A DNA stretch of 63,984 nt, filler included, from Reclinomonas americana ATCC 50394 (GCA_048213135.1; 10 parts of 7 records of this genome joined end to end with filler, not necessarily neighbours in it), one strand, 5' to 3'. Counted from the whole stretch's first letter, positions 12,001-57,388 are shown. The notes: generated by a model not told the origin, from the letters alone. A program made the numbers and translations.

Positions 12001-12637
12001 TGCGATGCATGCTTATTATTATAACGGTTTGGAATTCGCTCACATGCTGTCGGTGGCAGGGGAGGGCGAGGCGTATCCGCGACAGATTGCGCTGCTGTAT
12101 GATGGAATCCAGTTGCGTGGGACGGGCTCGCAGGGAGCCGTGGGATTCTCGAGACTGATTGCTCGTGGCATGCAGCTACGACACGTTTGCCGTGGCCCTC
12201 GACCCCGGCAGCGAGGTGTTCGACAAGACAGTGTTCGACAGCAACGACGAGATGCTTACGTTGAAGTGCATGTCGATTGTGGAGTCGATGAAGCAGGTGC
12301 GTGTGCAGTTCAACCATTCTCGTGCATGTCTGCATGTCCGTCTGTTCAGCCGTCTTGCTGCTTTCCCTCGTGCCACCTCTCCGAGTCCTATTTCCCCTTT
12401 CGCCCTCGTACTTCTCCTTCTCTCTTCTCCTGTCTCCTTCCATTCTCCAACTTACTTTCTCTTCTCCTCTCCCCACCCTCTCTCCTTCCATCCCTACCTC
12501 TCCAGCGCGGCCAATTCACCGACACCGCCAACTTCACCCTCCGCTGCTCCATTTGCCGCGCCAGCATCCGCGGTCAAGAGGACGCACAAAAGCACGCCAT
12601 GCAGACCGGCCACGCGCAGTTTGAAGAGTACCGCTAG
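9080..12637 (+). CDS. OTU1: OTU1/YOD1-type deubiquitinase (Ubl + OTU + C2H2 zinc finger)
   Basis: Exons 9080-9218, 9655-9851, 10722-10867, 11758-11999, 12060-12111, 12176-12296 and 12506-12637 splice in frame. Catalytic motifs DDNSCLFSAVG, WGGAIE, LLYDGIHYD; C-terminal FTLRCSIC...HAMQTGH zinc finger. Confidence 0.93.
11541..11640. other. Artificial scaffold linker N44-TTAATTAATTAA-N44; 12-mer also at 22191, 30165, 38723, 42368, 55663, 57333, 58585, 62511
   Basis: An identical 12-mer giving stops in all six frames, always centred in a 100-nt N block. Confidence 0.97.
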
Positions 12638-12763
12638 AGACATGCGCTGCTTGCAGTGAGAGTGGGTGCCTCACTCTCTTCTGCGCGCGATATCTCCACC
12701 GGTCGATTGTACGTAGTTTGTTCCTAGTGTCCATCATTAGTTTTTAATTCCCTTCTTCCCTTG

Positions 12764-15700
12764 TTATTTCATCGGAAACTGCCGCGCCTGCTCCGCCAGC
12801 ACATCACGAATGATGCGGGCGGCATCCATCTGCAACTCGTAGTCCTCGTCCCCTTCCACCGCCACCAACCCACCATGATCCACAATCTCCTGCTCCCCGT
12901 CGCCGGCGGCATCGACGAGACCCGCCCAGTCGGCATCGGTGAGGCACTCGCGCAGCGCGTGCGCCAGCTCCACCTGCTCGGGCGACGGCGACTCGCCGCT
13001 GTCGGGGGGCGCGAACAGCACACTTCGCGACGCCTCAGATTGGGATGCTGGTGGTGGCGGTGGCGGCTGCGGTTGTGGTGGAGGTTGGGATGGAGTAGCG
13101 ATTTGCACACGTCCCGGCGCCGGTGACCGCGATCGAGGAGGTTTCTTCCCCGAAGACAGGCGCCGCGGACGTCCCAAGATGGCCGCCGTGAGGGATCCGG
13201 TGGACGATTGTGGCTGGAACGATAGCGAGGCGTCTGCAAGGGAAAGAGAGACAGTGAGGGCGAATGGCATTACAAACAACACACGAAAGCGGAGATTGGG
13301 ACGCCCGGGCAGCCGGAAACCCCAGAACCACATGCCCATGAATAACAACAGGCAAGGACATGATGTGCAAGCACACAGAAAACAAGTGACATTTCACAGA
13401 AACCGCACAGCAGACGAAGCACAAATAATCAAACACGTAAAACACGCATTCAAAGACACAAGCAAACACGTGCATGTACAAAAGAAACAAACGACTGGAT
13501 ACAAGTGCACAGATGAATGCACATGAACACAGTTCACCACACCAGCGACGTGCAGAAGCAAACAAGCGTATGATGCACACGCACGGAGAGAGAGAGAGAC
13601 AAGCAGAAAACGCTCACACCAAATCACGCACAAGCACACCATGCAAACAGACAACATGCAGAAAGCATGAAGCAGAATACTTCGATCCACAGCATGTGCA
13701 TCACGACGCCACCAACAGTAGTACACAAACAACGAATGAACATTCAAGAGCACATGCACACCATGAAATCAAACAACAGCAAAAGCCACACAGAAGCATG
13801 GAAGAGAATGCATTGATCTAGAGGATGTACACAAGACGCCACCAACAGGAGTACACAAACATACAATGAACATACAATAGCACAAACACGCCATGCAAAC
13901 AAGTACGACAAATGCCACCTAGAAGCATGAATCAGAATGTCTTGATCTACAGGATGTACGTCACGACGCCACCAGTACAATATACAATACAATACACAAG
14001 CACGATCATCGAAAGGAAGCACGCACACAGAGATAGAGAGAGTACAAACACACAGATAGAAACACACAATACACAGCCAGCGCATATCATCCTTCTCCTT
14101 TCCCTACCATCCTTGTCCTTTCCCTATCACTCTTCTCCTTTCCCTATCACCGTTCTCCCTTGCCCTATCACCCTTCTCCCTTCCCTATAACCCCTCTCCT
14201 TTCCCTATCACCCTTCTCCCTTCCCTATCACCCTTCTCCCTTCCCTATCACCCTTCTGCTTTCCCTATCACCCTTCTCCCTTTCCCTATCACCCCTCTCC
14301 TTTCCAATCACCCTTCTCCCTTCCCCACCACCCTTCTCCTTTCCCCGAGTCGTAACTCTGCTCTGTCGGCGACGGCGATTGACTGGACAGCGACTGCAAG
14401 AAGCTGGCAATGGTGTCGTCGGCATCAGCCGTCATCTCCCCACTTCGACTGCTCCCGCTGCCGCTGTCGTGCTGTGTGCGGTCCAAGTGGTCGACCGTGA
14501 GAGTCACCGCAGAGCCCCGATGTTGGTGATGCATCCCAGCTGCGAGTCCACAGGCAAACATTAGAAAAACATGCACAGCCCCCAACCTTTCCCCCTATTC
14601 CCCAACTATCCATCCTTCCCAAATATCTATCATCCCCCAGCTGCCCATCCTTCTCAGGTTACTCATCCTTCCCCAATATTCTTCCTTTCGTCAGCTGCCC
14701 ATCCGTCTCCAGTCCCCCATCCTTACCCAACTACCCATTCTCCCCCAAGCACCATCCTTCCCCAATTACCTATCCTTCCACAGCTACCCATCCTTCCCAC
14801 ATTACCCGTCCATGTATAATTATCCCTCTTTCCCCACTATCCATCCTTTCCCCTATTACCCAATGATCTCATCCTTCCCCACATCCATCCTTCCCCTCAT
14901 ATCCATCCTTTCCCAGCTACCCATCATCCTTCCCCAATTTCTCCCACACCTTGCTTCTGCTCCTCCATCATGCGCGCAATGGTGGGGAACGGGGCCGCCG
15001 CGGTGGCCGCCAATCGTCGAAACGCCGACGACACCCCCGTCAGCTCCTCGCGCGCTGGATCCGGCGCAGCCTCGCCCTCGCCCAGCAACATGGAGACCAT
15101 CGGCATCACATCGTTCACACGGCGCATGGCCACACGCGTGTCCGCCGCCCGCCTCTCCTCCGCCACCGCGCGCAGACGCTCGGCCAACAGCTCCAGTGGC
15201 AACACCGGATCCGACGACGATCGCAGCAGCGGCGCCATAACATCGGCAGAGCTGCGCGTCGGCGGTAATCTTGTCGTCGTCGGCTGATGTCGCTCCTCCG
15301 CTTGTGACGACCAGTCGTCCTCCTCGCGAGACCATGCATGCGCTCCACCATCGGCAGCACCGCGAGGTGATCTGCTGTGCCGTGTGCGTGACCGTCGCGG
15401 TGGTGGTGGTGGTGACGGAGCCGGCTGCGTCCGCGGACCTCTGCTCGGCTCTTGTGTCCTCCGCACGTCCCTACGTTCTACATGCCACTCTTTCTCTTCC
15501 TCCTCCTCCGCCTCGTCCTCCTGCTGGTGCTGCTCCTCTTCTTCTCCTTCGTCCTCTGTGGGCGGAGAGAATGGCATGTCGGTGACAACTGGCACTTCGT
15601 CTACCACAAGGGGTGGCGGTGGTGCTGGTGCTGGTGCTGCTTCTGCAACAACAGCAGGGGCAGGAGGAGGTGGTGGTGGAGGCGGTGGTTGTGCCAACGT

Positions 15701-55935: not shown

Positions 55936-56027
55936 CGTTCCCTTCTCTCCCTTCTCCTCCCTTCTCTTCTCCCTCCCTTCTCTTCTCCTCCCTCCCTCCT
56001 CCTCACTCACCGCCTGCCACCTCACAG

Positions 56028-57129
56028 GCCGCGCCATTCGGCATTGGACGAGCACGTCGCGTGGCCTTTGCCTCTGCAGAAGACGAGGACGACATTCCGT
56101 GAGTGCTCTGATGTGCCACTCTTTTATCCCATTGTACCTCGTCTCATCCCGGAGTCGTGACAGAGAAACACCGGAACCTGTCGGCGGTCAAGCGGCGGAG
56201 GATGCACGAAAGGCGGAAATCACTGCAATTATGCAGGTGCATTAACTGCTCGTCGCACTCTCCACTCATTGTCCACTCACTGCGGGCGCATTGCACAGGT
56301 GCTCTTCACTGAGCTCATTGGCAACATGGATCAGTTTGTGGCGTGGCTTCGTCGCAAGGGCTGCCACTTTCATGCCCTGCTTGTCATGTCGCACACGCAA
56401 CGGTGGATGGAGCGCGCGAGCGACCCGAGAAGTTGTGGCCTCGTGTGCGCTTATTTTGGTCTCGTTCTGTCTGACGTCGTTTGTACTGCAGACGACTGGT
56501 GCAGCGACTTTACTTTCCAAGTGCTTCTCTTCACGCTGGCGCAGTCACAGCGCATCTTTTCCGAGTTTATCGACGAACAGGTGGTGGACATTAACGAGTT
56601 CAAGGTGCGTGCGATGTGATGTGTCGGCACATAATCTTGAAACTCATTGGTGCGCATCATGTAGACCTCTATCAAGCATCCGAATTTGATTCCCGCAGTG
56701 CGCACCTTCCCGCTCTTTGTCAAGTACGTAGAGAGGCTATGCGTCGGTCGCTCCGATCGCAACGCCATTGGTCTGGCCTACCAAATGGCACTAAAGGCGG
56801 CGATGGCGTTGCGTCGTGCACCTTGTCGTCGTCGCCGCGTTCCGCATCTTCGTTGATCATATCTGTGCAGTTCTGTGGAGCGGCTCGCGTTGACCAACGA
56901 AAAGTATGCGAGCGTATTCAAGTTTGTGCACTGGCAGTACCTGGTGGATGAAATGGACAAGCTGGTTTGTCTGTCTGTTGTTGCACTTTTGTGCACTGCA
57001 TGTCGAGGAGTACTCAATTTGTGAGCAGCCCAAGGACAACCTCGAAGTGCTGGAGCCCTACGTTCAGCAGCTCACCACGGAGGCCGACACGCAGTTGCAA
57101 AAGTACTGCACGTGGCTGGCCACCTATTC
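56028..57129 (+). CDS. Internal fragment of an exocyst Sec3/EXOC1-like gene
   Basis: Spliced: QRIFSEFIDEQVVDINEFK|...IPAVRTFPLFVKYVERL...RNAIGLAYQMALKAAMA|SVERLALTNEKYASVFKF..., which resembles the Sec3 C-terminal helical region from memory. Both ends are lost at linkers. Confidence 0.6.
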
Positions 57130-57388
57130 GTTGCGTGTTGCGGGTTCACCACGTTTCTGGTGCTAGAGAGAGAGAGGAGGGGGCAAGAGAGAAAGTGGGG
57201 AGGGGAAGAGAGAAATTGAGAGAGAGGGAGAGAACTGGGGGAGGGGAAAGAGAGAAACTGGGAGAGGGGAAAAAGAGAGAAGCTGAGANNNNNNNNNNNN
57301 NNNNNNNNNNNNNNNNNNNNNNNNNNNNNNNNTTAATTAATTAANNNNNNNNNNNNNNNNNNNNNNNNNNNNNNNNNNNNNNNNNNNN

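Follow-up and report, generated by a model that had tools for sequence, protein, structure and literature searches.

The window described here, by which we mean the whole 63,984-nucleotide stretch of DNA from Reclinomonas americana ATCC 50394 that was analysed, carries introns whose 5' splice sites (donors) come in two forms lying one base apart. Beside the ordinary form, of the GTGCGT or GTGAGT kind, stands a second, GTTG(C/A/T)G, which we call the T class. An earlier reading, made from the sequence alone, had picked out these donors as an abundant class with one extra T after the GT. Judged by reading frame and homology, that observation is confirmed: the class is real, is abundant in the window and is displaced by one base. 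Cutting at the T-class GTs restores conserved proteins. Our preferred account, which we consider somewhat more likely than not, is that the introns are of the usual short GT-AG spliceosomal kind but have a second, abundant donor, /GUUG(C>A>U)GU (the slash marks the cut), and that the two forms would be one recognition element met in a shifted register. What is new in this analysis is a difference on the exon side of the cut: the G that ordinarily ends the exon goes with one class of donor and not with the other.

Anatomy of the two donor classes

The comparison is drawn from 31 donors whose introns have homology support. Among the 16 ordinary ones, G occupies +3 in 15 and +5 in all 16, +4 is shared among C (8), A (5) and T (3), and +6 is T in 11. 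The 15 T-class donors all have T at +3 and G at both +4 and +6; +5 is C in 12, A in two and T in one, and +7 is T in 12. A purine at +3 is seen in 0/15 T-class and 16/16 ordinary donors, and the same counts hold for the G at +5, which in the T class sits at +6 instead. The GNGT block therefore lies one base further in, T-class +4 to +7 copying ordinary +3 to +6. The sequence-only reading had turned on an excess of G at +4 and +6 among donors with T at +3, and that excess is complete (15/15 at both). By our count the exact heptamer GTTGCGT accounts for 10 of the 15, and the donor set as a whole is bimodal rather than one uniform class.

The exon columns move as well. The last base of the exon is G at 14/16 ordinary donors and at 1/15 of the T class (Fisher p = 6.8e-6), and leaving out paralogous positions in the NHL repeats changes little (14/15 against 1/13, p = 8e-6). 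T-class -1 (T8, A4, C2, G1) resembles ordinary -2 (T7, A6, C3), and T-class -2 (A8, C3, G2, T2) resembles ordinary -3 (C6, A5, G3, T2). Because -1G is nearly confined to ordinary donors, both classes fit a single element, G-[G/T]-T-G-N-G-T, cut before its only GT.

At their other end the introns are alike. The acceptor is CAG in 15/15 T-class and 14/14 ordinary introns, and a CT[CG]A[CT] motif lies 7-42 nt upstream of the AG in 10/15 and 12/14, respectively (11 and 13 with a looser pattern); this branch-site motif was derived by eye from the same introns, so the counts are descriptive. T-class introns run from 54 to 82 nt, with one of 610 nt, and ordinary ones from 60 to 80 nt. With 3' ends so similar, nothing suggests a different kind of intron. 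As in U2-type (major) introns, those of the T class have GT...AG ends, and their removal restores both frame and conserved protein. U12-type introns have a /RTATCCTT donor and a TCCTTAAC-like branch site; we rejected that identity, the donors here beginning GTTG, GTTTG or GT[AG] and never GTATCC.

One position within the NHL repeat, directly after the motif Y-V/I-A-D, is occupied by GTTGCGT twice, by GTTGAGT once and by plain GTGAGT once. Since T-class and GTGAGT donors share this position, the two forms can swap by gain or loss of a single T at a fixed exon end.

Support for the junctions

We compared three of the window's genes with their homologues: 17 GxGYxYP proteins (mostly bacterial and free of introns), 150 phospholipase B-like proteins and 120 NHL-repeat proteins. 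For each junction, every frame-keeping GT or GC...AG pair within 48-75 nt was ranked by a family hidden Markov model or by best BLAST score against the NHL set. In tblastn the homologues have gaps exactly over the proposed introns, and alignment runs unbroken across the proposed junctions. Support of this kind was found for 33 introns in six genes: 15 with GTTG(C/A/T)G donors, two with GTTTG and 16 ordinary. The T class, at 15 of 33 in 6 genes, is no minority in the window. To say that it is spread over nearly all genes, as was first supposed, is too strong, for it was verified in 6 of roughly 12-14 eukaryotic genes (the total is our own estimate).

The motifs that had been listed at the outset are all present, 27 of 27, and 17 of them are GTTGCGT. 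GTTGAGT occurs at 27457 (+) and 43442 (-), GTTGTGT at 22728, 35802 and 55426, GTTGCGG at 26992, GTTGCGA at 54262 and GTTGCGC at 54938; GTTTGCG begins at 55226 and GTCTGTG at 22434. As donors, 16 of the 27 have homology on their side (12112, 23291, 26992, 27189, 27457, 27676, 28502, 41035, 41746, 43442, 54262, 54726, 54938, 55139, 55226 and 55426). For 35673, 39824 and 56808 the support is their choice by a gene finder that has no donor preference, and eight belong to neither group (17061, 19614, 22434, 22728, 35802, 44914, 45372 and 57130). The T-class donor ranks first at 26992, 27189, 27457, 27676, 28502, 54726, 55426, 41035 and 43442, as does the GTTTG donor at 55226. Coordinates and donors are collected in Table 1.

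Table 1. Introns, genes and spacers of the window (bits are junction scores; ranks are among candidate junctions)
Feature	Coordinates	Strand	Donor	Remarks
T-class intron, OTU1-like gene	12112..12175	+	GTTGCGTG	Gene finder also chose it
T-class intron, FKBP gene	23291..23372	+	GTTGCGTT	Gene finder also chose it
T-class intron, phospholipase B-like gene	26992..27053	+	GTTGCGGC	Top of 13, 401.5 vs 397.0 bits
T-class intron, phospholipase B-like gene	27189..27242	+	GTTGCGTC	54 nt, in frame, stop-free
T-class intron, phospholipase B-like gene	27457..27520	+	GTTGAGTA	Top of 17 by 9.9 bits
T-class intron, phospholipase B-like gene	27676..28285	+	GTTGCGTG	610 nt, mostly GA microsatellite
Micro-exon of 13 nt, phospholipase B-like gene	28489..28501	+		Between GTGCGA intron and GTTGCGT intron
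T-class intron, phospholipase B-like gene	28502..28561	+	GTTGCGTG	Top of 13 by 6.4 bits
T-class intron, GxGYxYP gene	54262..54318	+	GTTGCGAA	57 nt, in frame; 21-residue homologue gap
T-class intron, GxGYxYP gene	54726..54792	+	GTTGCGTG	Top of 5 by 5 bits
T-class intron, GxGYxYP gene	54938..55009	+	GTTGCGCT	In variable loop
T-class intron, GxGYxYP gene	55139..55201	+	GTTGCGTC	Homologue gap
T-class intron, GxGYxYP gene	55426..55489	+	GTTGTGTG	
T-class intron, NHL gene A	41673..41746	-	GTTGCGTG	After Y-I-A-D repeat motif
T-class intron, NHL gene A	40972..41035	-	GTTGCGTG	Top of 16, 83.2 vs 78.6 bits
T-class intron, NHL gene B	43375..43442	-	GTTGAGTA	Top of 24, 75.1 vs 71.6 bits
GTTTG intron, GxGYxYP gene	55226..55285	+	GTTTGCGA	-1G, +5G; top of 5 by 4.5 bits
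GTTTG intron	44381..44454	-	GTTTGTCA	-1G, +5G; 87.4 vs 80.1 bits
Ordinary comparison intron, GxGYxYP gene	54475..54537	+	ctg/GTGCGTCG	21-residue homologue gap; top of 11
Ordinary intron, NHL repeat	44081..44160	-	GTGAGTGT	85.9 bits, top of 19
Candidate T-class intron, without homologue	35673..35730	+	GTTGCGTG	Gene finder; ACTCAC then GCAG at 58 nt
Candidate T-class intron, NHL gene A tail	39760..39824	-	GTTGCGTT	Gene finder
Candidate T-class intron, gene of no known family	56808..56870	+	GTTGCGTC	Gene finder
Candidate site beyond those first listed	38194..38252	+	GTTGCGTC	CTCAC then CAG at 59 nt
WD40 gene	4207-8601	-		Pfam
OTU1-like gene	11642-12634	+		Pfam
FKBP gene	22457-23440	+		Pfam
Phospholipase B-like gene	25072-30769	+		Pfam; many small exons
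Cytochrome b561	31096-31548	-		Pfam
Two NHL/TIG genes	39389-45569	-		Pfam
BCKDK/PDK-like kinase	48216-50459	-		Pfam
GxGYxYP gene	53995-55618	+		Pfam
Contig spacers	11541-11640; eight more at 22147, 30121, 38679, 42324, 55619, 57289, 58541, 62467			

The OTU1-like gene offers the sharpest case. Its intron at 12112 splits the codon that follows the YDGI match to a solved OTU1/YOD1 chain, and a shift of 1 or 3 nt alters that codon. Because the exon that follows opens with c-tac-gac, no GT but the one at 12112 preserves it. The split codon is presumably that of the catalytic histidine of the family. The same solved chain aligns twice around an ordinary 60-nt intron at 12000-12059. In the FKBP gene, the exon before 23291 stops at position 69 of 94 in the FKBP_C profile, and the exon after it is open to a stop codon.

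The phospholipase B-like gene is the richest. At 27189 the proposed intron fills an 18-residue gap in the homologues and its donor is top of 33 candidates, with a GC...GAG alternative 0.2 bit lower. The homologues are continuous over METT/N at 27457, with no gap. The long intron at 27676 rebuilds a split W codon between NCQ and IVVDY, where a relative (P0020) has one residue, and its donor is top of 11 candidates by 7 bits. The micro-exon at 28489..28501 supplies four residues (97-100 of P0020) between two tblastn matches. Once spliced, the product aligns with distant homologues over about 275 residues at 40-51% identity; the best of these relatives are taxonomically scattered (Gefionella, Anaeramoeba, Dictyostelium and Nematostelium).

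In the GxGYxYP gene the homologues pass at 54726 from DGDN.QW straight into L/M-L-N-., with no gap. At 55426 the T-class donor is top of 35 candidates, 4.6 bits over a GTGTGC three bases downstream; GTTGTGT sites carry an in-frame GTGT donor three bases on, and here homology chooses GTTGTGT. At two junctions of this gene homology does not single out the exact donor: 54262 scores 397.4 bits, where in-frame alternatives reach 397.8 and 396.7, and 54938 also scores 397.4 bits, where two alternatives reach 398.0 and 397.8. Of the NHL donors, 41746 scores 82.8 bits and a GC...AAG candidate 83.6 (24 candidates), at the same repeat position as 41035 and 43442. The ordinary donor at 44160 also falls at that position (Y-V-A-D/), alongside all three T-class introns. 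At 39824 the homologue scan gave scores around 30 bits, which are uninformative.

Two sites, at 55226 and 22434, had first been taken for donors shifted by two bases. No such shift is called for. GTTTGCG at 55226 has G at +5 and -1 and fits the ordinary register, as does GTTTGTC at 44454, a donor added by this analysis; the candidate GTCTGTG at 22434 has both Gs likewise and would fit that register too. Splicing at 55226 gives a length equal to that of the homologues, and at the position of the 44454 intron a paralogue's exon is unbroken. These two, 44454 (-) and 55226 (+), make up the supported part of a small third donor form, GTTTG(T/C), with further candidates at 40845 (-), 56965 (+) and 8598 (-); the form recalls the Entamoeba GUUUGU consensus. 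The candidate at 40845 (GTTTGCCC) scored 70.1 bits against 73.9 for a GC alternative and was excluded from all counts.

Among the homologue searches there was no identical transcript-derived protein. A word-indexed search with a 51-residue exon of the phospholipase B-like gene gave no match, and a metagenome scan with the same exon gave 363 pattern matches, none of them confirmed, and so no related genome in which donor conservation could be followed. Short open reading frame (ORF) tails in databases were considered as a read-out of the donors of relatives and rejected; those ORFs simply begin at an internal methionine, and the T class is seen in none of them.

The motif across the window

The heptamer GTTGCGT occurs 24 times in the window, where dinucleotide shuffles lead one to expect 6.77 +/- 2.76 (0/100 shuffles reached 24). 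Within gene spans oriented by Pfam, the WD40 gene excluded, GTTGCG is found 16 times in sense and four times in antisense (p = 0.012). A loose module of branch site plus YAG follows 25-130 nt downstream of 20/39 GTTGCG sites and of 1454/6179 GT sites of all kinds (23.5%).

The donor-agnostic gene finder points the same way. It is a Viterbi model whose donor is "GT" and nothing more, combined with codon log-odds, a CAG/branch-site acceptor score and a length prior. In genes scoring >= 25, GTTGCG is the commonest donor hexamer it chooses (11/71 donors); the background share is 39/6179 GT sites, and the excess has p = 1e-12. Over all eukaryotic contigs the share is 13/139, and among the false introns it draws on bacterial-looking contigs, our negative control, 0/17. 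The program misplaces in-frame alternatives (for example 27469, 44445, 44284, 44154 and 41477) as well as drawing introns on bacterial contigs. Being noisy and often taking an in-frame neighbouring GT, it was used for donor-agnostic enrichment only. An earlier version without acceptor signals was too noisy, and a crude open-frame scoring of the listed sites chose distant acceptors, so that from it only the read-through distances were kept.

The motif alone is not sufficient for splicing. Copies at 4963, 5058 and 5292 (-) lie inside the long WD40 exon, where nothing points to their being spliced, and another, at 27478, lies inside an intron; the copy at 56401 (-) is antisense to a plus-strand gene-finder model at 55719-57166, which is not oriented by Pfam.

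A proposed single element in a shifted register

How might a spliceosome read both donors? The exon-side evidence favours a shifted register or an altered U1, and speaks against a tolerated bulge. In the first of these, both forms would be one recognition element, G-[G/U]-U-G-N-G-U, with cleavage before its only GU. Where the second letter is G, the cut would fall after the first G; where it is U, the cut would fall ahead of the T-class GU, that is, before the first G. U1 would then pair one base further downstream relative to the cut, and the intron's own +1G would stand, opposite U1, where -1G usually stands. The usual partners of U6 are +5G and +6U; here U6 would have to use +6G and +7U, with one nucleotide to spare beside the cleavage site, and in every version of the story that we can construct, U6 must presumably contact its G-U one base further from the cut than usual. 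The T class has the hallmarks of a shifted register: it pairs poorly in the ordinary register and better in the shifted one, and its exon columns agree with those of ordinary donors once the shift is applied. Against the standard U1 5' end, T-class donors have on average 4.33 possible pairs in the ordinary register, 6.60 in the shifted register and 7.0 if +3U is bulged.

Several things weigh against this reading. Those same counts (6.6 shifted, 7.0 bulged) do not separate the models. The junctions rest on homology, and at one of them, 55139, the T-class donor is second of 9 candidates, 3.2 bits under an in-frame GC alternative. The evidence covers 33 introns in a single 64-kb window, and three T-class sites are paralogous repeat positions. 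The A at -2 (8/15 of the T class) would suit ordinary exon pairing too, and the C at +5 (12/15) is a mismatch to standard U1 that the shift leaves unexplained. A U6 register with the paired G six bases from the cut was not found in the literature examined, and the sole non-canonical U6 register found reported there, that of STAT3, goes the opposite way in the passages of PMC11162779 that deal with it.

The strongest rival, though on balance we think it unlikely, is a co-evolved or duplicated U1 whose altered 5' end would pair without interruption along GUUGCGU. Such a U1 might have gained a base, might carry G where it meets the C, or might have a different base facing +2. It would match the T class best, and ordinary donors would be imperfect ones that need an extra pair at -1G. 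This matches the data as well as the shifted register does. It would account for the T class being much tighter than the ordinary class (GTTGCGT in 10/15), for the prevalence of a +5 C that mismatches standard U1, and for -1G being needed in the ordinary class alone. There is precedent in the passages of bioRxiv 10.1101/2022.06.08.495308 on U1, where Entamoeba has ACAAAC opposite GUUUGU and Mastigamoeba has ACGUAC with GUGCGC donors. Against it, the same passages have standard U1 kept in most lineages with atypical donors; the preference for C differs between our classes only at the borderline (12/15 against 7/16, p = 0.066); and the window holds no Rfam snRNA (small nuclear RNA) match to inspect. 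The Rfam scan of the window gave 0 matches at gathering thresholds and, at E <= 1, 16 matches, all on low-complexity GA/CT tracts and none to an snRNA.

A bulged register, one of the two options of the sequence-only reading, is improbable. In it standard U1 would pair with -1, +1 and +2, the U at +3 (or +2) would loop out and pairing would resume at +4. This gives the highest pair count with standard U1 (mean 7.0, against 6.6 shifted), the -2 A in 8/15 matches ordinary exon pairing, and for the +2/+3 bulge the relevant part of PMC4856993 gives experimental support from human cells. What argues against it is -1G, which would be most valuable in precisely this register and is all but missing from the T class; at 1/15 against 14/16, it is why a shifted register or an altered U1 5' end is favoured over a simple bulged U. 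On general nearest-neighbour grounds, too, looping out one base should be costlier than the one U-C mismatch that the shifted register entails.

Two further readings have very little chance of being right. The first would move the cut three bases on, to give GC-AG introns (GTT/GCGT...) with GTT as a valine codon. Such introns are always in frame, and they score better by 3.2 bits at 55139 and by 0.4 bit at 54938, but they score lower at 7 of the 9 scored GTTGCG sites, by 0.7 to 7 bits (26992 by 4.5, 27189 by 5.1 with the same acceptor, 27676 by 7.0, 28502 by 6.4, 54262 by 0.7, 54726 by 5.0 and 41035 by 4.6). They would also replace the codon after YDGI at 12112, and GTTGAGT (27457, 43442) offers no GC at all; on these three counts we rejected them. 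The second holds that there are no introns, only chance motifs or in-frame coding insertions that are read through: 3/15 T-class introns are stop-free multiples of three (27189, 54262 and 55139), the same is true of the GTTTG intron at 55226 and of ordinary introns at 12000 and 54475, and the motif is found inside the WD40 exon (5058). It is opposed by the enrichment and strand bias of the motif, by frame changes or stops in the remaining introns (read-through from 27676, for example, meets a stop after 13 codons, from 28502 after seven and from 55426 after four), and by the fact that the inserted residues are missing from homologues.

Comparison with known systems

The nearest relative of the shifted register we propose is human. 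Shifted and bulged U1 registers have been proven in human cells, according to the passages of PMC4856993 and PMC11162779 that treat them, and so have registers with an asymmetric loop, though all are rare. In the shifted register of Roca and Krainer (2009), as described there, U1 sits one base downstream and cleavage is still at the GU; such a donor looks as if one nucleotide had been inserted between +2 and +5 (PMC11162779). The T class would have the same displacement of U1 with the cut at the GU. It differs in that it makes up 15/33 checked introns with a tight consensus and stands beside ordinary donors in the same genes, whereas human non-canonical registers make up about 1.5-2% of donors; our side of the comparison is drawn from sequence. 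The curated estimates in PMC4856993 put all non-canonical registers at 1.5-2.1% of 201,541 human donors, and its Table 3 counts 54-68 of those donors with a +2/+3 bulge and 36-51 with a +3 bulge. These human bulges, as presented there, have the same extra U after GU and the same displacement of the motif by one, but the T class is without a usable -1G.

Entamoeba offers a different comparison. In the passages of bioRxiv 10.1101/2022.06.08.495308 searched, its donors keep +5G and +6U in place and form a single class (88-90% GUUUGU) in an intron-poor genome, and there is no mention of GUUG, of a bulge or of a shift. Going by that account, Reclinomonas resembles Entamoeba in that it has a donor consensus with U, unlike GURAGU, at +3, and Mastigamoeba, with its GUGCGC, in that ordinary donors favour C at +4. 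It is unlike Entamoeba in having two classes one base apart in intron-rich genes, Entamoeba being without displacement.

A third comparison is with the tandem donor of STAT3 exon 21, for which the relevant passages of PMC11162779 argue a non-canonical U6 register in which the G that U6 pairs with lies only four bases away from the cut. It is like our proposal in that the spacing between the cut and the G-U contacted by U6 need not be five bases; it is unlike it in that STAT3, as described there, is a single gene at four bases, whereas the T class would be many introns at six. A word search of the literature found no splicing paper with GTTGCGT/GUUGCGU or GTTGCG/GUUGCG among the 16 of 17 matching papers listed, judged by titles and the starts of abstracts, and no paper with GTTGAGT/GUUGAGU or degenerate spellings, a search that logos present in figures or supplements only would escape.

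The window and its genes

The window consists of draft contigs joined by spacers of 44 N, TTAATTAATTAA and a further 44 N, with additional scaffold gaps. Most are eukaryotic; their introns are short and their GA/CT microsatellites long. Three contigs at 57389-62466 look bacterial: they have long unbroken ORFs and encode an MlrC/M81 peptidase, a short-chain dehydrogenase, a TetR regulator and an SBP_bac_3 solute-binding protein, which suggests contamination or a mixed assembly. The phospholipase B-like gene runs over the spacer at 30121-30220 (profile positions 444-486 lie at 30221-30769), and neighbouring contigs can therefore adjoin in the genome.

That gene also contains, between coding exons, a tandem array with a 26-nt unit in about 36 copies and 78% matches, at 29128-30119 and 30223-30393 (+). 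The array is scored as periods 52 and 78 too, and its many copies of GTTGTGC inflate the counts of GTTGTG. Long GA/CT microsatellite tracts lie inside 27676-28285 (+) and at 3334-3514, 63058-63416 and 46495-46735; they give weak sub-threshold Rfam matches (MIR408, Hsp83 3' UTR, snoRNAs) that are artefacts of composition. On the minus strand, 4204-8235 is a single unbroken 4-kb exon with a P-loop-like region and about 14 WD40 repeats. The two NHL/TIG genes, at 38860-42321 and 42707-45030 (-), are tandem paralogues with apparently signal-peptide-like N-termini. Some of their intron positions are common to both, and one has a single exon where the other has three.

Four plus-strand introns, of both classes, are stop-free multiples of three: 12000-12059, 27189-27242, 54262-54318 and 54475-54537, of 60, 54, 57 and 63 nt. 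Reading through them would insert 18-21 residues with the frame kept, and annotation based on ORFs would miss them.

What a second donor register would mean

Few features of nuclear introns are as constant as the G at +5 and the fixed spacing of five bases from the cut to the U6 contact. Registers displaced from these have so far been an experimental curiosity, at about 1-2% of human donors. It is possible, although we would wager somewhat against it, that this lineage defines its 5' splice sites in two registers at near-equal frequency, either with the U6-paired G-U routinely six bases from the cut or with an additional or modified U1 (and perhaps U6) that matches GUUGCGU. If that is true, it would be a natural system in which the rule on distance from cut to +5G contact is relaxed genome-wide.

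There is a practical warning for annotation, as predictors trained on GTRNGT would misplace T-class junctions, several of the introns being in frame and stop-free. A genome in which about half of the checked introns are displaced would also give natural tests of how U1, U6 and the catalytic core fix the site of cleavage, and the T class would show whether snRNAs co-evolve with displaced donors.

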